Assembly: GCF_054482525.1 (NCBI RefSeq)
Contig: NZ_CM137006.1
Direction: 5' to 3' (one strand)
Length of the DNA: 64,000 nt
Shown in pieces: positions 1 to 43,950 of this stretch. Position 1 is the first letter of the stretch, and the number at the start of each line of letters is the position of its first letter. The translations under genes were made by a program, and so were the position numbers. The notes below the pieces were generated by a model. That model was not told the origin of the DNA and did not search any database. It saw nothing but the letters and a program-made list of their open reading frames with translations.

Positions 1-327
<327 letters not shown>

Positions 328-332
328 CCCTG

Positions 333-363
333 ACGGCCTCTGCGGAGGCCGTCACTCTTTATT
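333..363. terminator. stem-loop (acggcctc/gaggccgt) plus T-rich tail between convergent pntB and tqsA
   Basis: 8-bp perfect inverted repeat 333-340/345-352 followed by cactctttatt; seen directly. Confidence 0.5.
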
Positions 364-1386
364 GAGATCGCTTAACAGAACGGCGATGATTTGACCTCCC
401 GCTGTTTGTTCAAGCGCAATTTTGACAATAATTGTCAACGGCACGGAAAGCAGCATACCCACCGGTCCTAACAACCATCCCCAAAAAATCAACGACAAAA
501 ATACCACCAATGTGGAAAGCCCCAGCCCACGCCCCATGATGCGTGGCTCCAGAATATTGCCGAAGACCAGATTAATCAGCAGATATCCCGCCAGCACCAG
601 CAACGCTTCGTAGAAGCCATTAAACACCAGTACCTGAGCGATAGGGGGGATTGCCGCGAGAACTGAACCAATATTAGGGATGTAATTAAGCGCAAAGGCC
701 AGCAATCCCCAGACAAAAGCGAAGCGAACATCGAGTGCGGCGAGCATCGCCCAGGCGACCAGGCCGGTGATGATGCTGATGGCTGTTTTCAGCACCAGAT
801 AATGAGACACACTGTCAATCGCACGCTGAATCGCCGCCATCCCTTCAACCGGACGCGCCATCATTTGCTGAAATTTTCCGGGCAATTGTGGCACTTCGAG
901 CAGCATAAACAGCACCGTCAGCAGCAATAAAAAGATTGATGACATGGCATTAGATAACTGCGTCAATAAGTTGGTGAGCAACGTCATCGCCGCGTTCGGA
1001 TCAATGTAATGCGCCAGTTGGTCAACTGAGACGTCAATCCCTACGCGTTGCAACAACGGTTCAAGAGCTTGCAGCGGCGTCATAATAGAGTTGCGATATT
1101 GCGGTAACGTCCGCGTCAATTCGTTGAGCGCGGAACCCAGATAAGCTAACAGCAACACCATCGCCATCACGATGATGGTCATCAAAATCGACACCGCCAG
1201 TACACGCGGCACTCGCCAGCGGACCATGTGTTGCACCAGCGGGTTAAGAATAACAGCAATAAATAATGCGAGAATAAACGGCACGATGATCTCGGCGGCA
1301 AAACGGATACCGCAGAGAATAATGACCAGCATTCCCAACATAATGACGATTTTTAGGCCATTGAGCGTGATGATCGGCTTTGCCAT
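352..1386 (-). CDS. tqsA: AI-2 exporter TqsA (YdgG), AI-2E family membrane protein
   Basis: 344-aa hydrophobic ORF; sequence and position next to pntB match K-12 TqsA as recalled. Confidence 0.88.
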
Positions 1387-19148: not shown

Positions 19149-19490
19149 TTAGGGGGTAATAACGCGGCCAGTTCGACGGTCCAGGCAGCGCAAAGTATTT
19201 GGCTCCCAGTAGGCATTGATGTTGGCGCTTTGCTCACATTTATCGCGGTTATCAAAAGCGGCGTCGGCTTTATCCCACTCTTTTTCAGTGCGTTTATTCA
19301 CTTTCTGACGCAGATTGCGCGTGTCATTCCATTGCTCTTTTTCCATAGCGGCGTGCTGGCGGCTTTGTGCACTGTCGCCAGACTCAATCACCAGTTTGTT
19401 AGTTTCGGCATGAACAGTTGTGCTCAATGCCATTGCGCAAGGCAGCAGAAAAGCGAGCAGGCCAATTCGTTTGCTGAGAGTAATTTTCAT
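19149..19490 (-). CDS. ynfB: secreted UPF0482 protein YnfB
   Basis: 113 aa with signal peptide; matches YnfB as recalled. Confidence 0.85.
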
Positions 19491-19624
19491 AATTCATTCC
19501 CTGTATGAATGATTAAAGGTGATTCTACACCATCCACTGCGAACGCAAAACGTACCAGGAGGATGTTTATATTGATGATATTATGTCGTCCTATAACTAT
19601 ACATGATGTCAATAAGTGACAAAG

Positions 19625-19951
19625 ATGATTAAAACAACGTTACTATTTTTTGCTACTGCGCTGTGTGAAATTATTGGATGCTTTCTGCCCTGGTTGTGGT
19701 TAAAACGAAACGCCAGTATCTGGCTGTTGCTTCCGGCGGGGATTTCTCTGGCACTGTTTGTCTGGTTGTTAACGTTGCATCCTGCGGCGAGTGGGCGTGT
19801 TTACGCGGCTTATGGTGGCGTTTATGTCTGCACGGCGTTGATTTGGCTGCGTGTTGTGGATGGCGTGAAACTGAGTCTTTATGACTGGACGGGGGCGTTG
19901 ATTGCGCTTTGCGGCATGTTGATCATTGTTGCGGGCTGGGGGCGCGCGTAA
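19625..19951 (+). CDS. ynfA: UPF0060 small membrane protein YnfA
   Basis: 108 aa from [26 protein letters not shown]; four-TM-like. Confidence 0.85.
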
Positions 19952-20156
19952 GGACATAAATCCATTTTATCAATAAGATACAAGGAAGTGTCAGCTGACA
20001 AAAGATATTCTATTTCATCTTTTGTCAACCATTCACGGCGCAAATATACGCCTTTTTTTGTGATCACTCCGGCTTTTTTTGATCTTTATACTTGTATGGT
20101 AGTAGCTCAGTTGCGTAGATTTCATGCATCACGACAAGCGATGCAAGGAATCGAAC

Positions 20157-21371
20157 ATGAAGATCGTAAAGGCTGAAGTTTTTGTTACCTGTCCGGGGCG
20201 TAATTTCGTCACATTAAAAATCACCACTGAGGACGGTATTACGGGCCTTGGGGATGCCACCCTCAATGGACGTGAGCTTTCCGTGGCCTCTTATTTGCAG
20301 GATCACCTTTGTCCGCAGCTTATTGGTCGCGATGCGCACCGTATCGAAGATATCTGGCAGTTTTTCTATAAAGGTGCTTACTGGCGTCGCGGTCCGGTTA
20401 CGATGTCGGCCATTTCAGCGGTTGATATGGCGCTGTGGGATATTAAAGCCAAAGCTGCCAACATGCCGCTTTACCAGTTACTCGGCGGCGCGTCTCGTGA
20501 AGGGGTGATGGTTTATTGCCATACCACCGGTCACAGTATTGATGAAGCTCTGGATGATTATGCCCGTCATCAGGAGCTGGGATTCAAAGCCATCCGCGTG
20601 CAGTGCGGAATCCCTGGTATGAAAACCACCTACGGCATGTCGAAAGGTAAAGGTCTGGCTTATGAACCCGCAACCAAAGGACAGTGGCCGGAAGAGCAGC
20701 TGTGGTCGACGGAGAAATACCTCGATTTCATGCCGAAATTGTTTGACGCGGTACGTAACAAGTTTGGTTTTAATGAACATTTGCTGCATGACATGCACCA
20801 TCGCTTAACGCCTATTGAAGCGGCGCGCTTTGGTAAAAGCATTGAAGATTATCGCATGTTCTGGATGGAAGACCCGACGCCTGCGGAAAACCAGGAATGC
20901 TTCCGTCTCATTCGCCAACATACCGTCACACCCATCGCGGTGGGTGAAGTCTTCAACAGCATCTGGGACTGCAAGCAACTGATTGAAGAGCAACTTATCG
21001 ATTATATCCGCACTACGCTGACCCACGCGGGTGGCATTACCGGTATGCGCCGGATTGCCGATTTTGCTTCGCTGTATCAGGTACGTACTGGCTCACACGG
21101 TCCTTCCGATTTGTCACCAGTCTGCATGGCTGCGGCGCTGCACTTTGATCTGTGGGTCCCCAATTTCGGTGTCCAGGAATACATGGGTTATTCCGAACAA
21201 ATGCTCGAAGTCTTCCCGCACAACTGGACTTTCGATAACGGCTATATGCATCCGGGAGACAAACCGGGTCTTGGCATCGAATTCGATGAAAAGCTGGCGG
21301 CGAAATATCCCTATGAACCTGCTTATCTGCCAGTCGCACGTCTGGAAGATGGCACGCTGTGGAACTGGTAA
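20157..21371 (+). CDS. rspA: starvation-sensing protein RspA (enolase-superfamily mannonate dehydratase family)
   Basis: 404 aa from [17 protein letters not shown] with AAGGAA RBS; track ORF starts 11 codons upstream. Confidence 0.92.
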
Positions 21372-21382
21372 GGAGTAAGATA

Positions 21383-22402
21383 ATGAAAAGCATTTTAATT
21401 GAAAAACCGAATCAACTGGCAATTATCGAACGTGAAATACCCACCCCGTCAGCGGGTGAAGTACGAGTAAAAGTGAAACTTGCCGGAATTTGTGGTTCAG
21501 ATAGCCATATTTACCGTGGGCATAATCCTTTTGCGAAATATCCGCGCGTCATTGGTCATGAATTCTTTGGCGTCATTGATGCAGTGGGTGAAGGCGTGGA
21601 AAGCGCCAGAGTCGGTGAACGCGTTGCTGTCGATCCGGTGGTCAGCTGTGGGCATTGCTATCCGTGCTCTATAGGTAAGCCGAACGTTTGTACGACACTG
21701 GCTGTATTAGGTGTGCATGCTGACGGTGGTTTCAGTGAATATGCCGTGGCTCCGGCAAAAAATGCGTGGAAAATTCCTGAAGCAGTGGCCGATCAATATG
21801 CGGTGATGATCGAACCTTTTACCATTGCGGCGAACGTAACCGGTCATGGTCAACCGACTGAAAATGATACCGTTCTGGTTTACGGTGCCGGTCCAATCGG
21901 TCTGACGATCGTTCAGGTATTAAAAGGCGTCTATAACGTTAAAAATGTGATTGTTGCCGATCGCATTGATGAACGACTGGAAAAAGCGAAAGAGAGCGGG
22001 GCTGACTGGGCGATTAATAACAGCCAGACACCGCTTGGCGAGATTTTCGCTGAAAAAGGCATCAAGCCGACATTAATTATCGATGCGGCTTGTCATCCTT
22101 CAATCCTGAAAGAAGCCGTAACGCTGGCTTCTCCAGCGGCACGTATTGTATTGATGGGGTTCTCCAGTGAACCGTCTGAAGTGATTCAGCAAGGAATTAC
22201 CGGAAAAGAACTCTCTATTTTCTCTTCACGCTTAAATGCAAATAAATTCCCGGTCGTTATCGACTGGTTAAGTAAAGGGTTAATTAAACCAGAAAAACTA
22301 ATTACCCATACGTTTGATTTCCAGCATGTTGCTGATGCCATTAGTTTATTTGAACAGGATCAAAAGCATTGCTGCAAAGTCTTACTCACTTTTTCTGAAT
22401 AA
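21383..22402 (+). CDS. rspB: starvation-sensing protein RspB (Zn-dependent alcohol dehydrogenase family)
   Basis: 339 aa from MKSILIEKPNQ with AAGGAG RBS right after rspA stop; GHEFFG and GxGxxG motifs. Confidence 0.92.
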   Translation: MKSILIEKPNQLAIIEREIPTPSAGEVRVKVKLAGICGSDSHIYRGHNPFAKYPRVIGHEFFGVIDAVGEGVESARVGERVAVDPVVSCGHCYPCSIGKPNVCTTLAVLGVHADGGFSEYAVAPAKNAWKIPEAVADQYAVMIEPFTIAANVTGHGQPTENDTVLVYGAGPIGLTIVQVLKGVYNVKNVIVADRIDERLEKAKESGADWAINNSQTPLGEIFAEKGIKPTLIIDAACHPSILKEAVTLASPAARIVLMGFSSEPSEVIQQGITGKELSIFSSRLNANKFPVVIDWLSKGLIKPEKLITHTFDFQHVADAISLFEQDQKHCCKVLLTFSE

Positions 22403-22459
22403 TACCAATAACGGCGAGTAAGTAGTACGCATCTTACCTCTTTTTTAGAGATAACCATT

Positions 22460-23827
22460 ATGACAATAGAAAAACACGAAAGAAGCACTAAGGATTTGGT
22501 GAAAGCAGCAGTATCGGGATGGCTGGGCACTGCGCTTGAATTTATGGATTTCCAGTTATATTCGCTCGGCGCAGCGTTAGTGTTTCATGAAATATTTTTT
22601 CCTGAATCATCAACGGCAATGGCGTTAATTCTGGCAATGGGAACCTACGGTGCAGGTTATGTGGCGCGTATTGTCGGAGCATTTATTTTCGGCAAAATGG
22701 GCGACAGAATCGGGCGTAAAAAAGTGCTCTTTATTACCATCACTATGATGGGGATCTGTACCACCTTAATTGGTGTGCTGCCGACCTATGCACAAATTGG
22801 TGTGTTTGCGCCAATTTTGCTGGTGACGCTGCGTATTATTCAGGGATTGGGTGCAGGTGCGGAAATTTCTGGTGCCGGTACGATGCTGGCGGAATATGCG
22901 CCAAAAGGTAAGCGCGGAATTATCTCCTCATTTGTGGCTATGGGAACTAACTGCGGAACCTTGAGCGCAACGGCAATCTGGGCCTTTATGTTCTTCATTC
23001 TCAGTAAAGAGGAACTGCTGGCGTGGGGATGGCGTATACCGTTCCTGGCGAGCGTTGTCGTGATGGTCTTTGCTATCTGGTTGCGTATGAATCTGAAAGA
23101 AAGCCCGGTCTTTGAGAAGGTTAACGACAGCAACCAACCGACAGCAAAATCTGCACCTGCTGGTAGCATGTTCCAGAGCAAATCCTTCTGGCTGGCAACA
23201 GGGCTGCGTTTTGGTCAGGCTGGTAACTCCGGTTTAATTCAGACTTTCCTCGCAGGCTATTTAGTGCAGACGTTATTGTTTAACAAAGCAATTCCAACAG
23301 ATGCATTGATGATCAGTTCGATTCTCGGCTTTATGACCATTCCGTTCCTTGGTTGGTTATCCGATAAAATAGGTCGCCGGATCCCGTATATTATTATGAA
23401 TACCTCTGCGATTGTGCTGGCGTGGCCAATGCTTTCTATCATCGTAGATAAAAGCTATGCCCCGAGCACCATTATGGTTGCACTGATTGTGATTCATAAC
23501 TGTGCGGTGCTGGGATTATTTGCTCTGGAAAACATTACCATGGCAGAAATGTTCGGCTGTAAAAACCGCTTTACCCGGATGGCCATTTCTAAAGAAATTG
23601 GTGGTCTTATCGCTTCCGGTTTTGGTCCTATCCTGGCGGGTATTTTCTGCACCATGACGGAATCCTGGTATCCGATCGCCATTATGATCATGGCATATTC
23701 AGTGATTGGTTTAATCTCTGCGCTGAAAATGCCAGAAGTGAAAGACCGTGATTTAAGTGCACTGGAAGATGCCGCGGAAGATCAACCGCGTGTTGTAACA
23801 GCTGCGCAACCTTCAAGAAGTCTGTAA
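22460..23827 (+). CDS. ydfJ: MFS-type transporter YdfJ, full-length 455 aa
   Basis: uninterrupted ORF 58 bp downstream of rspB; from memory this gene is split by Qin prophage in K-12 MG1655. Confidence 0.85.
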   Translation: MTIEKHERSTKDLVKAAVSGWLGTALEFMDFQLYSLGAALVFHEIFFPESSTAMALILAMGTYGAGYVARIVGAFIFGKMGDRIGRKKVLFITITMMGICTTLIGVLPTYAQIGVFAPILLVTLRIIQGLGAGAEISGAGTMLAEYAPKGKRGIISSFVAMGTNCGTLSATAIWAFMFFILSKEELLAWGWRIPFLASVVVMVFAIWLRMNLKESPVFEKVNDSNQPTAKSAPAGSMFQSKSFWLATGLRFGQAGNSGLIQTFLAGYLVQTLLFNKAIPTDALMISSILGFMTIPFLGWLSDKIGRRIPYIIMNTSAIVLAWPMLSIIVDKSYAPSTIMVALIVIHNCAVLGLFALENITMAEMFGCKNRFTRMAISKEIGGLIASGFGPILAGIFCTMTESWYPIAIMIMAYSVIGLISALKMPEVKDRDLSALEDAAEDQPRVVTAAQPSRSL

Positions 23828-23916
23828 ATCCTCCATCCCTTCTCTTACCGGAGAGGGGATTTTTTATTCATATAACAAAACATGCAGCTTGCCATATTTA
23901 TATTTAAGGAATTGTT

Positions 23917-25377
23917 ATGGGAAATAATTTGTTATCAGCAAAAGCGACGCTCCCTGTTTATGATCGTAATAACCTGGCCCCAAGAATTGTTCATTTAGGC
24001 TTTGGTGCATTTCACCGTGCGCATCAGGGCGTGTATGCCGATATTCTTGCTACGGAACATTTCAGTGACTGGGGATATTATGAGGTCAATTTAATCGGCG
24101 GCGAACAGCAAATTGCCGATTTACAACAGCAAGATAATCTTTATACCGTTGCGGAAATGTCGGCCGATGCGTGGACGGCTCGCGTCGTTGGCGTCGTTAA
24201 AAAAGCCTTGCACATACAAATAGATGGCTTAGAAACCGTGCTGGCTGCGATGTGTGAACCGCAAATCGCGATTGTCTCTCTGACAATCACCGAAAAAGGG
24301 TATTTCCACTCTCCGGCGACCGGACAGTTAATGCTCGATCACCCGATGGTCGTTGCCGACGTACAAAATCCCCACCAGCCGAAAACTGCAACAGGGGTGA
24401 TTGTCGAGGCGCTGGCTCGCCGTAAAGCGGCAGGTCTTCCCGCATTTACCGTCATGTCATGTGACAACATGCCAGAAAACGGTCATGTTATGCGTGACGT
24501 TGTCACTTCCTACGCGCAAGCTGTTGATGTAAAACTGGCACAATGGATCGAAGAAAACGTGACTTTCCCATCAACAATGGTGGACCGTATTGTGCCCGCA
24601 GTGACGCAGGATACGCTGGCGAAAATCGAACAACTTACCGGTGTGCGCGATCCTGCGGGCGTTGCCTGTGAACCTTTCCGCCAGTGGGTAATAGAAGATA
24701 ACTTTGTTGCCGGACGTCCGGAATGGGAAAAAGCGGGAGCCGAACTGGTTAGTGATGTGCTGCCTTATGAAGAGATGAAGTTGCGCATGCTCAACGGCAG
24801 TCATTCATTCCTGGCGTATCTGGGGTATCTTGCCGGATATCAGCACATTAATGACTGCATGGAAGATGAACATTATCGTCATGCAGCGTATGCCTTGATG
24901 TTGCAGGAACAAGCGCCGACGTTGAAAGTGCAGGGCGTTGATTTGCAAGATTACGCTAACCGATTAATTGAACGCTATAGCAACCCGGCGCTACGTCATC
25001 GAACCTGGCAGATTGCGATGGATGGCAGCCAGAAATTGCCACAGCGGATGTTGGATTCTGTTCGCTGGCATCTGGCGCATGACAGCAAGTTCGATCTGCT
25101 GGCGCTGGGCGTCGCAGGTTGGATGCGTTATGTCGGTGGTGTTGATGAACAGGGAAATCCGATAGAAATCAGTGACCCACTGTTACCTGTTATTCAGAAG
25201 GCTGTACAAAGTAGTGCCGAAGGGAAAGCGCGCGTCCAGTCATTGCTGGCGATTAAGGCGATCTTTGGTGATGATTTGCCAGACAATAGCTTGTTTACTG
25301 CAAAAGTGACGGAAGCGTACTTGTCTTTATTAGCGCATGGTGCGAAAGCGACCGTGGCGAAATATTCCGTGAAGTAA
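23917..25377 (+). CDS. ydfI: mannitol-dehydrogenase-family oxidoreductase YdfI
   Basis: 486 aa; N-terminal Rossmann-like [12 protein letters not shown]; matches YdfI as recalled. Confidence 0.88.
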
Positions 25378-25384
25378 AAAAAGC

Positions 25385-25405
25385 AATGCCGCCATCGGCG
25401 GCATT
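25385..25405 (-). terminator. hairpin aatgccgcc/ggcggcatt with flanking A/T runs between convergent ydfI and ydfZ
   Basis: 9-bp perfect stem; on minus strand followed by GCTTTTTTTA (ydfZ terminator); A-tract on plus side suggests bidirectional use. Confidence 0.6.
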
Positions 25406-25412
25406 CACACGC

Positions 25413-25616
25413 TTAGTTCATGCCGAGACGAATCAGGTCCAGAGGTGCCAGTTTCTCTTCACAACCTTCAACAACTACGGTTTTTCCGCGGCGGATTTGC
25501 TCAGCGGTCAGACCTTCAGTATCAATCGACAGGATCTTGCCAGTGTGACCGGTGCCGCTAACCATAACACGGCTGCCAGTGGTGATTGCGTTACGGTTAC
25601 GATCGTAGGTCGTCAT
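25413..25616 (-). CDS. ydfZ: small protein YdfZ (67 aa; putative selenium-binding)
   Basis: 67-aa ORF matches YdfZ as recalled. Confidence 0.85.
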
Positions 25617-25792
25617 AGGTGTTTTCTCCTTTCTGATTTACAGTCGAAGCCCACGTAACGGGCGCACTATAAATACTCCTGTCGAGTGAAATATTTTTTG
25701 TTTTTGATCAAGCTCACATCTTTTTTGATGCATGCATGAGCCATAAGGCGGGGGGAAAGACTCTCACCCCGGATGGGATGAGAGGAAATGAA

Positions 25793-26479
25793 TTACTCTT
25801 CGCTAAACCAGTCGCTGTTTTCCTGACGGATCTGGCGCACGGATTCGCTGATTTCCTGCAAATGTTGCGTCATTGCACGTTCTACCGCATCGCCATCACG
25901 TTTTTGCAGGGCAGAGAAAATCTCAAGATGCTGGCGTAACAGCATTTCTGGTGGAGAAACGTGGTCGAAACTCATATAGCGCACGCGATCAACGGTCGCT
26001 TTCAGGTTCTCAATGGTATCCCACGCCAGTTGACAGTCGGCAATCTGGGTCAGGAGTTGATGGAAGTTGTCATCAAGTTCAAAAAAATCATCCAGTTGCT
26101 TGCGCTCAATGGCAATGCGTTGCTGGTGAAGATTTTGTTCCAGTTGGTAGCACTGGCTTTCGGTAATCATGCTCGCCGCCCGACGCGCCACCGCGCACTC
26201 AATGGCCTGACGGATAAAACTGCCGTTGCGCACCTGGGCCATGGAAATTTTGTTGACGTAGCTGCCACGCTGCGGACGAATTTGAATCAGGCCGTTTTCC
26301 GCCAGTTTAATAAAGGCTTCACGAACCGGCTGGCGTGACACATTGAAACGAACAGAAACTTCTTTTTCCGACAACGGTGTGCCTGGTGCAATCAGGCAAT
26401 GGACAATGTCGCGACGAAGAATACGATAAATCTGCTGATTGACAGGCTGTGTGGGATTAAGTTGCGTTTCGACGGTCAT
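25793..26479 (-). CDS. ydfH: GntR/FadR-family transcriptional regulator YdfH
   Basis: 228 aa with N-terminal GntR-type HTH. Confidence 0.88.
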
Positions 26480-26567
26480 TCGTTCTTGCTTGTGAGTGAG
26501 TTAACTGCATGAGTCTACCACTTTTTTGTGACAAGCAATAACCCGGCAGTTACGCCGGGTATAAAAA

Positions 26568-27314
26568 TTACTGACGGTGGACATTCAGTCCGGCATAGCT
26601 TTGGGTAACCGGCATCATTTCCAGGGTATTGATATTGACGTGAGCAGGCAGCGTTGACACCCACCAGACGGCTTCGCTGACATCTTCTGGCGTCAATGCA
26701 ACGGTATTTTGATAGGTTTTTTCCGCTTTACCGTCATCGCCTTTAAAGCGGACATTGGAAAACTCGGTGCCACCCACCAGACCCGGCTCGATGTCGGTGA
26801 CGCGCACCGCCGTACCATGCAGGTCCGTACGCAGATTCAGGCTAAACTGACGAACAAACGCTTTCGTCGCACCGTAAACGTTACCACCGGCATACGGCCA
26901 GCTACCAGCCGTTGAGCCAATGTTAATAATATGACCATGATTACGTTCAACCATACCCGGTAAGACGGCGCGCGTCATATATACCAGGCCTTTGTTGTTG
27001 GTATCAATCATCGTTTCCCAGTCTTCAACGCTGGCTTTATGCGCAGGCTCCATGCCCAACGCCAGACCGGCATTATTTACCAGGATATCAATATTGCACC
27101 ACTCGGCAGGAAGCGATGCCAGCATCTCTTCAATAGCGGCGCGGTTGCGAACGTCCAGTTGGGCGATATACAGATTATCTCCCAGTTCGTCTTTTAACTC
27201 CTGCAACCGCTCCTGGCGACGGCCAGTGGCGATAACTTTATGCCCTTGTTGAATAAAACGACGAGTAATGCATTCACCAAAACCTGCCGTTGCTCCAGTT
27301 ACTAAAACGATCAT
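26568..27314 (-). CDS. ydfG: NADP-dependent 3-hydroxy acid dehydrogenase YdfG (SDR family)
   Basis: 248 aa from MIVLVTGATAGFGE (TGxxxGxG) with catalytic YGATK motif. Confidence 0.92.
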   Translation of the reverse strand: MIVLVTGATAGFGECITRRFIQQGHKVIATGRRQERLQELKDELGDNLYIAQLDVRNRAAIEEMLASLPAEWCNIDILVNNAGLALGMEPAHKASVEDWETMIDTNNKGLVYMTRAVLPGMVERNHGHIINIGSTAGSWPYAGGNVYGATKAFVRQFSLNLRTDLHGTAVRVTDIEPGLVGGTEFSNVRFKGDDGKAEKTYQNTVALTPEDVSEAVWWVSTLPAHVNINTLEMMPVTQSYAGLNVHRQ

Positions 27315-27450
27315 CTCACTGTTCCTCAACGCTTTTGTGTGTCAATAACATAGCACGTGATGCTTAAGAGCGGGTAATACTGGTTTGCAAGATTGCACTC
27401 CGTTATCAGTAAGCCTACGCTATGGAACACCTCGCGTTCAGGAGAAGAAA

Positions 27451-29496
27451 ATGACAACAATGAATCCTTTCCTTGTGCAAAGCACACTGCCGTATCTGGC
27501 TCCCCATTTTGATCAAATTTCCAATCATCACTATCGCCCGGCATTCGATGAGGGAATGCTGCAAAAGCGGGCAGAAATTACTGCCATCGCGCTTAACCCG
27601 CAAACGCCTGATTTCAACAATACTATTCTGGCACTGGAACAAAGCGGAGAATTACTTACCCGCGTTACCAGCGTCTTTTTTGCGATGACTGCGGCGCATA
27701 CCAATGATGAATTACAGCGTCTTGATGAACAGTTTTCCGCTGAACTGGCGGAACTGGCTAATGATATCTATCTGAACGGTGAATTATTCGCGCGGGTAGA
27801 TGCTGTCTGGCAGCGCCGAGAATCCCTGGGGCTTGATAGTGAATCCATCCGCCTGGTGGAGGTGATTCATCAACGTTTTGTCCTTGCCGGAGCCAAACTT
27901 GCGCAAGCTGATAAAGCAAAATTAAAAGTACTGAATACAGAAGCTGCGACCCTGACCAGCCAGTTTAACCAGCGGTTACTGGCAGCAAATAAATCCGGCG
28001 GTCTGGTTGTGAACGATATCGCGCAGCTGGCAGGAATAAGTGAGCAAGAGATTGCGCTGGCGGCAGAGGCGGCTCGCGAGAAAGGTCTGGATAACAAATG
28101 GCTGATTCCGCTGCTGAATACCACCCAACAACCGGCGCTTGCCGAAATGTGCGATCGCGCGACGCGTGAAAAACTGTTTATTGCGGGCTGGACGCGAGCG
28201 GAAAAAAATGATGCCAATGATACCCGCGCTATCATTCAACGTCTGGTGGAGATCCGTGCACAACAGGCAACATTACTTGGTTTTCCTCATTATGCCGCAT
28301 GGAAAATCGCCGATCAGATGGCAAAAACACCTGAAGCAGCACTCAACTTTATGCGGGAAATTGTTCCAGCGGCGCGTCAACGTGCGAGCGATGAATTAGC
28401 CTCCATACAGGCGGTTATTGATAAGCAGCAGGGCGGGTTTAGCGCGCAGCCGTGGGACTGGGCATTTTATGCCGAGCAGGTAAGACGTGAGAAATTCGAT
28501 CTCGATGAATCGCAGCTCAAGCCATATTTTGAATTAAACACGGTGTTGAATGAAGGTGTATTCTGGACCGCGAATCAGCTCTTCGGTATTAAGTTTGTCG
28601 AACGTTTTGATATTCCTGTCTACCATCCTGACGTTCGTGTGTGGGAAATTTTTGATCATAATGGCGTGGGGCTGGCGTTATTTTACGGTGATTTCTTCGC
28701 CCGTGATTCAAAAAGCGGCGGTGCATGGATGGGCAATTTTGTTGAGCAATCAACGCTTAATGAAACGCACCCGGTAATTTATAACGTCTGCAATTATCAG
28801 CAACCCGCCGCTGGGGAGCCTGCGTTGTTACTCTGGGATGATGTCATAACCTTATTCCATGAATTTGGTCATACGCTGCACGGCCTTTTTGCCCGCCAGC
28901 GTTATGCCACGCTTTCCGGCACCAACACGCCGCGTGATTTTGTCGAATTTCCGTCGCAAATCAACGAACACTGGGCAACGCATCCGCAGGTATTCGCTCG
29001 CTACGCCCGGCATTATCAGAGCGGGGCAGCAATGCCTGAAGAGCTGCAACAGAAAATGCGTAATGCCAGCCTGTTCAACAAAGGGTATGAGATGAGCGAA
29101 CTGCTTAGCGCCGCACTTCTCGATATGCGCTGGCATTGCCTGGAAGAAAACGAAGCAATGCAGGATGTCAATGATTTCGAATTGCGGGCGCTGGTGGCAG
29201 AAAATATGGATCTTCCCGCTATACCGCCACGCTATCGCAGCAGTTATTTCGCCCATATTTTTGGTGGCGGATATGCCGCAGGTTATTACGCTTATCTGTG
29301 GACGCAAATGTTGGCCGATGATGGTTACCAGTGGTTTGTTGAGCAGGGCGGATTAACGCGTGAAAATGGGCTGCGTTTTCGCGAGGCGATCCTTTCCAGA
29401 GGTAACAGCGAGGATCTGGAACGCCTGTATCGACAATGGCGCGGTAAGGCACCTCAGATTATGCCGATGCTGCAACATCGTGGCTTGAACGTATAA
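27451..29496 (+). CDS. dcp: dipeptidyl carboxypeptidase II Dcp (M3 zinc metallopeptidase)
   Basis: 681 aa from MTTMNPFLVQ with GGAGAAG RBS; HEFGH zinc-binding motif present; track ORF begins 22 codons upstream. Confidence 0.92.
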   Translation: MTTMNPFLVQSTLPYLAPHFDQISNHHYRPAFDEGMLQKRAEITAIALNPQTPDFNNTILALEQSGELLTRVTSVFFAMTAAHTNDELQRLDEQFSAELAELANDIYLNGELFARVDAVWQRRESLGLDSESIRLVEVIHQRFVLAGAKLAQADKAKLKVLNTEAATLTSQFNQRLLAANKSGGLVVNDIAQLAGISEQEIALAAEAAREKGLDNKWLIPLLNTTQQPALAEMCDRATREKLFIAGWTRAEKNDANDTRAIIQRLVEIRAQQATLLGFPHYAAWKIADQMAKTPEAALNFMREIVPAARQRASDELASIQAVIDKQQGGFSAQPWDWAFYAEQVRREKFDLDESQLKPYFELNTVLNEGVFWTANQLFGIKFVERFDIPVYHPDVRVWEIFDHNGVGLALFYGDFFARDSKSGGAWMGNFVEQSTLNETHPVIYNVCNYQQPAAGEPALLLWDDVITLFHEFGHTLHGLFARQRYATLSGTNTPRDFVEFPSQINEHWATHPQVFARYARHYQSGAAMPEELQQKMRNASLFNKGYEMSELLSAALLDMRWHCLEENEAMQDVNDFELRALVAENMDLPAIPPRYRSSYFAHIFGGGYAAGYYAYLWTQMLADDGYQWFVEQGGLTRENGLRFREAILSRGNSEDLERLYRQWRGKAPQIMPMLQHRGLNV

Positions 29497-29507
29497 ACAC
29501 CACCAAT

Positions 29508-29537
29508 GGCTGGCCTGGAGAAATCGCCAGGCCAGCC
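29508..29537. repeat. 11-bp perfect inverted repeat (ggctggcctgg / ccaggccagcc) between dcp stop and ydeJ remnant
   Basis: seen directly; no U-tract on either side, so terminator or REP-like element. Confidence 0.5.
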
Positions 29538-29540
29538 TGG

Positions 29541-29700
29541 TTAGAGTAGTAATTGCAGCAGCTGGGCGAGGGCAAACCTCACCGCTAATGCGAATGCCGT
29601 TTCGCAGTCGCCAGCAAAATTACTTTTTTTGTATACCCTTCCGTTATAATAATTTTCAAATTTATAAATCTGATTGTTCTGAAATATGTTTAAGACTCTT
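29541..29700 (-). pseudogene. ydeJ: 3'-terminal remnant of CinA/PncC-family gene ydeJ (about 50 codons; start and most of gene absent)
   Basis: minus-frame translation ...NGRVYKKSNFAGDCETAFALAVRFALAQLLQLLL* resembles CinA C-terminal domain end (compare PncC ...FSGDRDAVRRQATAYALQTLWQQFL); no ORF >=60 aa in the 364-bp dcp-ydeI gap where K-12 has a ~520-bp gene. Confidence 0.4.
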
Positions 29701-42393: not shown

Positions 42394-42531
42394 TAATTGC
42401 GGAAAACGATAAAATAGCATTCCCAGGATATCTTTATTTGCCGCCGCTGTCAGCGAACATGCTATCCTTTATGAGAATTTACTTATTACGTTGAGATAAT
42501 TGCTATCCGCAATTGTATGGACAGATAATTA

Positions 42532-43950
42532 ATGCATGTACAGCCCATTTCAACTTTCCGTTTGTTCCAGGAAGGTCATCTGCTACGTAATAGCATCGCT
42601 ATTTTTGCGCTAACCACGCTGTTCTATTTTATTGGTGCAGAGTTACGGCTGGTTCACGAACTTTCTCTTTTCTGGCCGCTGAATGGCGTAATGGCGGGGG
42701 TGTTTGCCCGCTATGTCTGGCTTAATCGACTGCATTACTATGCGATCAGTTATGTGGCAATGCTGGTTTATGATGCCATAACCACCGAATGGGGGCTGGT
42801 TTCACTGGCTATCAATTTCTCCAATATGATGTTTATTGTTACCGTCGCCTTACTGGTCGCGCGGGATAAGCGTCTGGGGAAAAATAAGTACGAGCCAGTA
42901 AGTGCCTTACGGCTATTTAATTACTGTCTGATTGCCGCATTATTATGCGCTATTGTCGGGGCGATTGGTTCGGTCAGTATTGATAGTCTGGATTTCTGGC
43001 CTTTGCTTGCCGACTGGTTCAGTGAGCAATTCTCAACGGGCGTGTTGATCGTGCCTTGTATGCTGACGTTGGCAATTCCTGGAGTGCTGCCGCGCTTTAA
43101 AGCAGAACAGATGATGCCCGCTATCGCGCTTATTGTGTCGGTTATTGCCTCGGTAGTCATTGGCGGAGCGGGGAGTCTGGCGTTCCCGCTGCCTGCATTA
43201 ATCTGGTGTGCAGTGCGCTATACGCCGCAGGTAACATGTCTGTTGACCTTTGTCACCGGTGCGGTTGAAATCGTACTGGTGGCAAATTCGGTGATTGATA
43301 TCTCGGTCGGTTCGCCGTTCTCCATTCCGCAAATGTTCTCCGCACGTCTCGGTATTGCCACGATGGCGATATGCCCAATTATGGTTTCTTTTAGCGTGGC
43401 AGCGATCAATTCGCTAATGAAGCAAGTTGCGCTGCGAGCCGACTTTGATTTTCTGACTCAGGTTTACTCACGGTCCGGTCTTTATGAGGCGCTGAAAAGT
43501 CCATCGCTGAAACAGACACAACATCTGACTGTCATGCTGCTTGATATCGACTATTTCAAAAGCATTAACGATAACTATGGACATGAATGTGGCGATAAAG
43601 TGTTAAGCGTGTTTGCCCAGCATATTCAGAAGATTGTCGGTGATAAGGGGCTGGTGGCGCGAATGGGCGGCGAAGAATTTGCTGTTGCAGTGCCATCGGT
43701 GAATCCTGTCGATGGTCTGCTAATGGCGGAAAAAATCCGTAAAGGCGTTGAACTGCAACCGTTCACCTGGCAACAAAAAACGCTTTATCTCACGGTAAGT
43801 ATTGGCGTCGGTAGTGGTTGCGCATCGTACCGAACGCTGACCGATGACTTTAATAAATTGATGGTCGAAGCCGATACATGTCTGTATCGCTCGAAGAAAG
43901 ATGGGCGCAACCGTACCAGCACTATGCGTTACGGTGAGGAAGTTGTCTGA
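42532..43950 (+). CDS. dgcF: membrane-anchored diguanylate cyclase DgcF (YneF)
   Basis: 472 aa: multi-TM N-terminal domain plus GGDEF domain (RMGGEEF). Confidence 0.88.
   Translation: MHVQPISTFRLFQEGHLLRNSIAIFALTTLFYFIGAELRLVHELSLFWPLNGVMAGVFARYVWLNRLHYYAISYVAMLVYDAITTEWGLVSLAINFSNMMFIVTVALLVARDKRLGKNKYEPVSALRLFNYCLIAALLCAIVGAIGSVSIDSLDFWPLLADWFSEQFSTGVLIVPCMLTLAIPGVLPRFKAEQMMPAIALIVSVIASVVIGGAGSLAFPLPALIWCAVRYTPQVTCLLTFVTGAVEIVLVANSVIDISVGSPFSIPQMFSARLGIATMAICPIMVSFSVAAINSLMKQVALRADFDFLTQVYSRSGLYEALKSPSLKQTQHLTVMLLDIDYFKSINDNYGHECGDKVLSVFAQHIQKIVGDKGLVARMGGEEFAVAVPSVNPVDGLLMAEKIRKGVELQPFTWQQKTLYLTVSIGVGSGCASYRTLTDDFNKLMVEADTCLYRSKKDGRNRTSTMRYGEEVV

Follow-up and report, generated by a model that had tools for sequence, protein, structure and literature searches.

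Analysis of a 64,000-nt stretch of DNA (hereafter the window; contig NZ_CM137006.1 of NCBI RefSeq assembly GCF_054482525.1) almost certainly places an unoccupied attachment site (attB) of Qin/mEp460-type lambdoid phages inside an intact ydfJ gene, which follows rspB undivided because the phage attachment site that Qin occupies elsewhere is empty here. The 19-bp core of this attB, TGAATTTATGGATTTCCAG, occurs once in the window (0.03 occurrences expected with up to three mismatches) and aligns with the attP core of the phages mEp460_ev081 and PhiR42_1, and nothing in the evidence contradicted its identification. The coordinates of the site and of the surrounding features are collected in Table 1.

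The position of the site was determined by comparison with E. coli K-12 MG1655. The annotation of NC_000913.3 lists a 'cryptic prophage Qin' at 1632277..1652745, with ydfJ (b1543, 427 aa) on one flank and ynfP (36 aa) and then rspB on the other; this agrees with the arrangement that an earlier note, made from the letters of the window, had given for K-12, with Qin between the two genes and ydfJ split. The alignment to MG1655 proposed in that note was run, and both Qin boundaries mapped to one 19-bp point inside ydfJ: window positions 19298..22555 corresponded to MG1655 1656000..1652743 and positions 22537..29620 to MG1655 1632291..1625212, the MG1655 junctions derived from the window core being 1632274..1632291 and 1652743..1652761. 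When the whole window was compared by megablast with MG1655 1582000-1682000, the result was four collinear blocks and no match to Qin (MG1655 1632292..1652742) anywhere in the 64 kb, indicating that no Qin-like DNA is present in it. The Qin genes (ydfK and pinQ through to dicB and intQ) are absent between ydfJ and rspB, and rspB directly precedes ydfJ. The two K-12 fragments could be read directly against the whole gene, YnfP comprising YdfJ residues 1-31 followed by five phage-derived codons (KSHAC) and b1543 comprising residues 29-455 with two substitutions, S231P and T447R. The description of the strain as not K-12-like at this locus was likewise upheld by an identity to MG1655 of 97.3-98.3% and by the nearest complete genomes, which are M114, PCN033 and SCU-102.

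Table 1. Features of the rspA-rspR region, with positions counted from the first letter of the window.
Feature	Position	Strand	Evidence
RspR-box palindrome ATACTTGTAT, about 60 bp upstream of rspA	20088..20097		pattern match, position
rspA, ManD-type (D-mannonate dehydratase family) enolase-superfamily protein	20157..21371	+	NCBIfam NF011654, NF043051
rspB, Zn-dependent oxidoreductase, 339 codons, TAA stop	21383..22402	+	NCBIfam equivalog NF007489, 693 bits
rspB-ydfJ intergenic spacer, 57 bp	22403..22459	+	ORF list and raw sequence
Intact ydfJ, MHS-family MFS transporter, 455 codons and stop	22460..23827	+	ORF, profiles, PGAP annotation elsewhere
Unoccupied attB core, 19 bp	22537..22555		both MG1655 Qin junctions overlap here
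Putative strand-exchange segment, YdfJ Met29-Asp30-Phe31 (codons 29-31)	22544..22552		junction polymorphisms
Intrinsic-terminator-like hairpin and T-run, directly 3' of the ydfJ stop	23835..23866	+	terminator scan, RNA fold
ydfI, mannitol-dehydrogenase-family oxidoreductase, fructuronate-reductase subfamily	23917..25377	+	NCBIfam NF011611
rspR (ydfH), GntR-family repressor of rspAB	25793..26479	-	ORF; rspR annotated in MG1655 (b1540), M114 and PCN033

The earlier note had also described ydfJ as uninterrupted over 455 codons, and the reading frame bears this out: it starts with ATG and runs for 455 sense codons to its stop, with neither a frameshift nor an internal stop codon. The encoded protein scored 462.5 bits against the NCBIfam model TIGR00883 (metabolite/H+ symporter; cutoff 443.45), its residues 23-418 spanning profile positions 1-400 of 400, and it also matched Pfam MFS_1 (128 bits) and Sugar_tr. 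The DNA of M114 is 100% identical to the window over 22300-23900, and the 1368-bp gene carries the PGAP label 'MHS family MFS transporter YdfJ' in both M114 and PCN033. Judged by its sequence, the open reading frame is a real gene encoding a full-length member of the MHS family, and YdfJ would be expected to function in the source strain; a TCDB-derived table gives K+ (asterisked) for YdfJ. The attachment core spans codons 26-32, where the conserved MFS core begins, and the break point in the protein corresponds to TIGR00883 profile positions 7-9. A search for a solved-structure homologue of YdfJ by which residues 29-31 could be placed in helix 1 returned none at E<=1e-10, and a crude Kyte-Doolittle hydropathy analysis did not resolve the first helix, the motif of which includes E27 and D30.

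The phage partner of the site was reconstructed in silico by fusing the phage-side arms from both ends of Qin over the core, and the resulting 518-bp attP construct was searched in a phage collection. This joined attP was contiguous in PhiR42_1, mEp460_ev081, HannyBb and Tritos (98.1-99.6% identity, 100% coverage), and in all four phages an integrase gene adjoins it. On one side of attP the phage loci carry genes for integrase, excisionase and exonuclease VIII, and on the other a ydfK-like ORF, a pin-type serine recombinase and tail-fibre assembly genes, an arrangement that mirrors the two ends of Qin. The integrase contains the Pfam domains Arm-DNA-bind_2 and Phage_integrase, which mark it as a lambda-type tyrosine recombinase, and the excisionase matches DUF1233. 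We infer that the four phages integrate at ydfJ. The segments at 130..1270 of mEp460_ev081 (L006) and at 1633072..1634212 of MG1655 Qin hold the same genes, a ydfK-like ORF and a pin-type recombinase (ydfK and pinQ in Qin), so that the ydfJ-side end of Qin appears to be an essentially intact phage end although the prophage is cryptic.

A four-way alignment of attB, attP and the two K-12 junctions gave the exact BOB'/POP'/BOP'/POB' pattern. The attB of the window has bacterial arms on both sides, and the attP of the phages (TGAATT-ATGGATTTCAAG) has phage arms on both sides; the rspB-side junction of K-12 (TGAATTT...AAG) is bacterial on the left and phage on the right, and the ydfJ-side junction (TGAATT-...CAG) is phage on the left and bacterial on the right. 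Since the rspB-side junction is of the attB type on the left and of the attP type on the right, and the ydfJ-side junction is the reverse, strand exchange probably occurred between the two polymorphisms, within the 9 bp ATGGATTTC. The same polymorphisms bear on whether the contiguity of ydfJ could be an artefact of assembly, in which a prophage was collapsed or dropped. Such an artefact is extremely improbable: a collapse would leave attL/attR polymorphisms (AAG or the missing T), none of which is present, attB reads through cleanly between two bacterial arms and the reading frame is unbroken, and the contiguous junction is common to 2008 complete genomes. Nothing specific speaks for an artefact beyond the generic risk of draft assemblies at repeat-rich prophage loci.

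The empty ydfJ attachment site is a common polymorphism that has already been described. Of the 5426 complete E. coli genomes, 2008 (37%) matched a 200-bp probe centred on the core without a break, with a similar figure for a 24-kb probe (2164 genomes), and the site is interrupted in about 62% of the complete genomes; as the collection over-represents laboratory K-12 and STEC, these probe counts are not population frequencies. Most of the other genomes matched the 200-bp probe in two pieces, with breaks at query positions 91 and 109. The identities of the ydfJ matches were 96.9-98.8% for the split and 97.3-100% for the contiguous state, and both states were found on diverged alleles. Prophages are known from the literature to occupy ydfJ at an att of 18 or 19 bp (Nakamura et al. 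2021, PMC8112680); since K-12 and many other strains are occupied, that study took its attB reference from the empty ydfJ of the O104:H4 strain C227-11. Integration of Qin at the 5' end of ydfJ, with loss of the promoter and truncation of 28 codons, has been reported by a study that scored Qin in 48% of 638 strains, at locus sizes of 11-97 kb (PMC6379469). In K-12, though not in some other E. coli, rspR and rspAB are kept apart by Qin (PMC8249747). As a discovery, the present finding therefore has little weight, the att site, the core, the truncation of YdfJ and empty strains all having been published (PMC8112680, PMC6379469, PMC8249747). Its value lies in annotation: the strain is marked as not K-12-like at the ydfJ locus, it offers a free integration site for phages of the Qin/mEp460 type, and it keeps intact a transporter gene that is visible in K-12 studies only as a fragment. 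STEC prophages are found at this locus, some of them with effector genes, and one Qin-locus prophage has been reported to carry Stx2. For studies of the rsp/ydf sugar-acid genes, an empty-site strain like the present one would be preferable to K-12.

How the site came to be empty is a separate matter. The earlier note had called the window the pre-insertion state; the sequence is indeed the attB expected of that state, but the wording exceeds what a sequence can show, and it is overstated because precise Int/Xis excision or homologous replacement leaves an identical attB. Under the first of these routes the site would be secondarily empty, a former ydfJ prophage having been lost by precise excision with regeneration of attB. 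We consider this unlikely. It draws on the interruption of the site in about 62% of the complete genomes, on the occurrence of both the split and the contiguous state on diverged ydfJ alleles, which implies repeated gain and/or loss, and on the existence of phages of the ydfJ att type with an intact integrase and excisionase; yet precise excision leaves no scar by which the sequence could tell, and the close relatives M114 and PCN033 are also empty, with no occupied near-ancestor in evidence.

The second route, homologous replacement, relates to the mosaic composition of the window. From about 17 to 33 kb, a tract that includes attB, the window is nearly identical to M114 (3 mismatches), a strain from the mountain pygmy possum (Burramys parvus), and at 2-17 kb and 33-44 kb it differs from M114 by about 1-2%. 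From 33 to 63.6 kb it is nearly identical to PCN033 and SCU-102, and it differs from PCN033 by about 1.3% over 19.4-33 kb; the segment at 2-17 kb is close to neither M114 nor PCN033/SCU-102, and neither PCN033 nor SCU-102 matched the last ~375 bp (63626..64000). A 100% match to the whole window was found in none of the complete genomes of the collection, PCN033 and SCU-102 matching over 40-63.6 kb and M114 over about 17-33 kb. This pattern of identities indicates that the locus was exchanged by recombination at some point, and an import of the empty allele, by which DNA of a donor with an empty site replaced roughly 16 kb from rspA through dcp and possibly removed a prophage, would fit the M114-type tract that includes attB. 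However, ydfJ is unoccupied in the PCN033-type backbone as well, so that an import need not have altered the occupancy of the site, and mosaicism of this kind is ordinary in E. coli; we regard the import of the empty state as rather improbable. By whichever route it arose, the site as it stands in the window is read as an unoccupied attB in an intact ydfJ.

Because the ydfJ site carries no integration, the locus around it has kept an undivided layout. rspA (NF011654, 819.9 bits; ManD model NF043051, 744 bits) is collinear with MG1655 b1581, rspB has the length of b1580 and differs from it by 15 synonymous and 4 nonsynonymous codon changes, and ydfI (651 bits against a cutoff of 603) is collinear with b1542. 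The distance between rspR and rspB is 3.4 kb in the window as against about 24 kb in K-12. The short spacer between rspB and ydfJ stated in the earlier note was found, but its length is 57 bp and not 58 bp, and every base of it is the same as in the MG1655 rspB-ynfP spacer. A scan of the spacer called no consensus promoter or terminator, and the RNA fold of the 57 bp amounted to -6.4 kcal/mol (z +0.5). A terminator candidate seen by eye in the gap (GAGTAAG...CTTACCTC and a T-run) was rejected, as its fold was not above that of shuffled sequences (z +0.5) and the scan made no call. For the hairpin that follows ydfJ, the terminator scan gave an 11-pair stem and the RNA fold -16.4 kcal/mol (z -3.2).

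Without an integrated prophage, the locus runs in the order RspR box, rspA, rspB, a terminator-free 57-bp gap, ydfJ, terminator, ydfI, ydfZ and rspR. The sequence ATACTTGTAT was the sole match to the RspR-box pattern (ATACnnGTAT, ATACNNGTAT) in the window, which is weak alone with 0.57 matches expected by chance; its position agrees with that of the RspR box defined by footprinting upstream of rspA (PMC8249747), and it is likely the operator of an rspA-rspB(-ydfJ) unit. rspA, rspB and ydfJ are predicted to be co-transcribed under RspR, on the basis of the 57-bp gap, in which no signals were called, and of the strong terminator predicted after ydfJ. The neighbours of ydfJ, namely a ManD-type dehydratase, a Zn-dependent dehydrogenase and an oxidoreductase of the fructuronate-reductase subfamily, suggest that YdfJ imports a sugar acid. 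A candidate pathway leading from L-gulonate through D-fructuronate and D-mannonate to 2-keto-3-deoxy-D-gluconate (KDG) was reportedly described by Wichelecki et al. in 2014. It is possible, and we propose it only tentatively, that the undivided locus is a complete RspR-controlled module for sugar-acid uptake and catabolism with YdfJ as its dedicated importer. If this were true, the pathway would be disabled by Qin-type prophages in about 60% of E. coli, K-12 among them, the obscure physiological role of the rsp genes in K-12 work would be explained, and prophage occupancy at ydfJ would constitute a metabolic polymorphism.

Alternatively, ydfJ may be independent of rspAB, possibly as a silent transporter gene, and occupancy of the site may have little physiological effect. 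There is no established substrate of YdfJ, genomic SELEX of RspR in K-12 names rspAB as the only target (PMC8249747), and the K-12 remnant is without an excess of nonsynonymous change, all in line with an independent ydfJ; nevertheless we judge it to be improbable, since K-12 experiments could not detect an intact operon, rspB and ydfJ lie on the same strand 57 bp apart with no predicted terminator between them and one after ydfJ, and the neighbours rspA, rspB and ydfI all encode enzymes of the sugar-acid type. The remnant itself differs from window positions 22544..23827 by 26 synonymous and only 2 nonsynonymous codon changes, so that sequence decay does not prove the split copy dead, and the count is uninformative on decay because most of the divergence may predate the insertion. 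The synonymous to nonsynonymous ratios against K-12 are 25:11 for ydfI and 15:4 for rspB, and the ydfJ remnant is without sign of relaxed constraint.

With the site read as a free attB, integration can be envisaged as follows. Phages of the Qin/mEp460 type encode an excisionase and a tyrosine integrase of the lambda type, which has an arm-binding domain, and the integrase would recombine attP with attB by exchanging strands within the 9-bp segment. As in K-12, ydfJ would be divided into a 5' stub of 31 codons that continues into phage codons (ynfP) and a 3' remnant of 427 codons, the latter losing the first 28 codons and being cut off from the rspA promoter or upstream transcription. At the K-12 junction the reading frame contains a TGA two codons ahead of Met29, which indicates that the phage would give no replacement N-terminus. 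The source strain could presumably be lysogenised at the ydfJ site.

Several other loci of the window were recorded in the same comparison. At 29541..29623, about 477 bp of MG1655 (1624735..1625211, most of ydeJ) are missing, and an 81-bp 3' remnant of ydeJ remains, which RefSeq annotates in M114 and PCN033 as a partial pseudogene ('2-oxo-tetronate isomerase'). The 498 bp at 42467..42964, between yneG and dgcF, are absent from MG1655, and the dgcF homologue (ORF 42532..43950, plus strand) encodes a 472-aa 'sensor domain-containing diguanylate cyclase' as compared with 315 aa in K-12; from the extra 498 bp and the two protein lengths, the K-12 dgcF appears to be 5'-truncated. An intact 1806-aa 'ECSE_1600 family autotransporter' is encoded at 56753..62173 (plus strand), where MG1655 has the yneO pseudogene. 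Near the end of the window hipB is intact (62384..62650), and the match of hipA to MG1655 ends after 246 bp (62650..62895), where hipA abuts what the PCN033 annotation gives as a frameshifted partial remnant of an ISNCY-family transposase (minus strand, about 62897..63542); neither of the two ORF fragments of this transposase had a Pfam domain match. The strain is, by prediction, without a functional HipA toxin beside the antitoxin hipB.

Compared with known systems, the site has its chromosomal position and core sequence in common with the Qin (Kim) site of K-12 MG1655, as well as the flanking genes, with rspA and rspB on one side and ydfI, ydfZ, rspR, ydfG and dcp on the other. The difference is that MG1655 contains a 20.5-kb prophage and a ydfJ split into 36 and 427 codons, whereas in the window the prophage is absent and the 455 codons are whole. 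The att length of 18 or 19 bp given for the 'PPydfJ' locus (PMC8112680) agrees with the cores found here; the strains described there carry one to four tandem lambdoid prophages, some with T3SS effector genes, and the window carries none. In mEp460_ev081, PhiR42_1, HannyBb and Tritos the attP core (TGAATTATGGATTTCAAG) equals the attB of the window except for one T and one C/A, and the attP arms share 98-99.6% identity with the joined Qin ends, these being the phage partner sites and not the bacterial site. As with the attB and attP of lambda, there is a short common core, strands are exchanged inside a segment of identity, and the arm-binding integrase is encoded next to an excisionase; in contrast to the lambda attB, which lies between gal and bio, the target in the window falls within the 5' part of a coding sequence, so that integration would disrupt the gene and not restore it.
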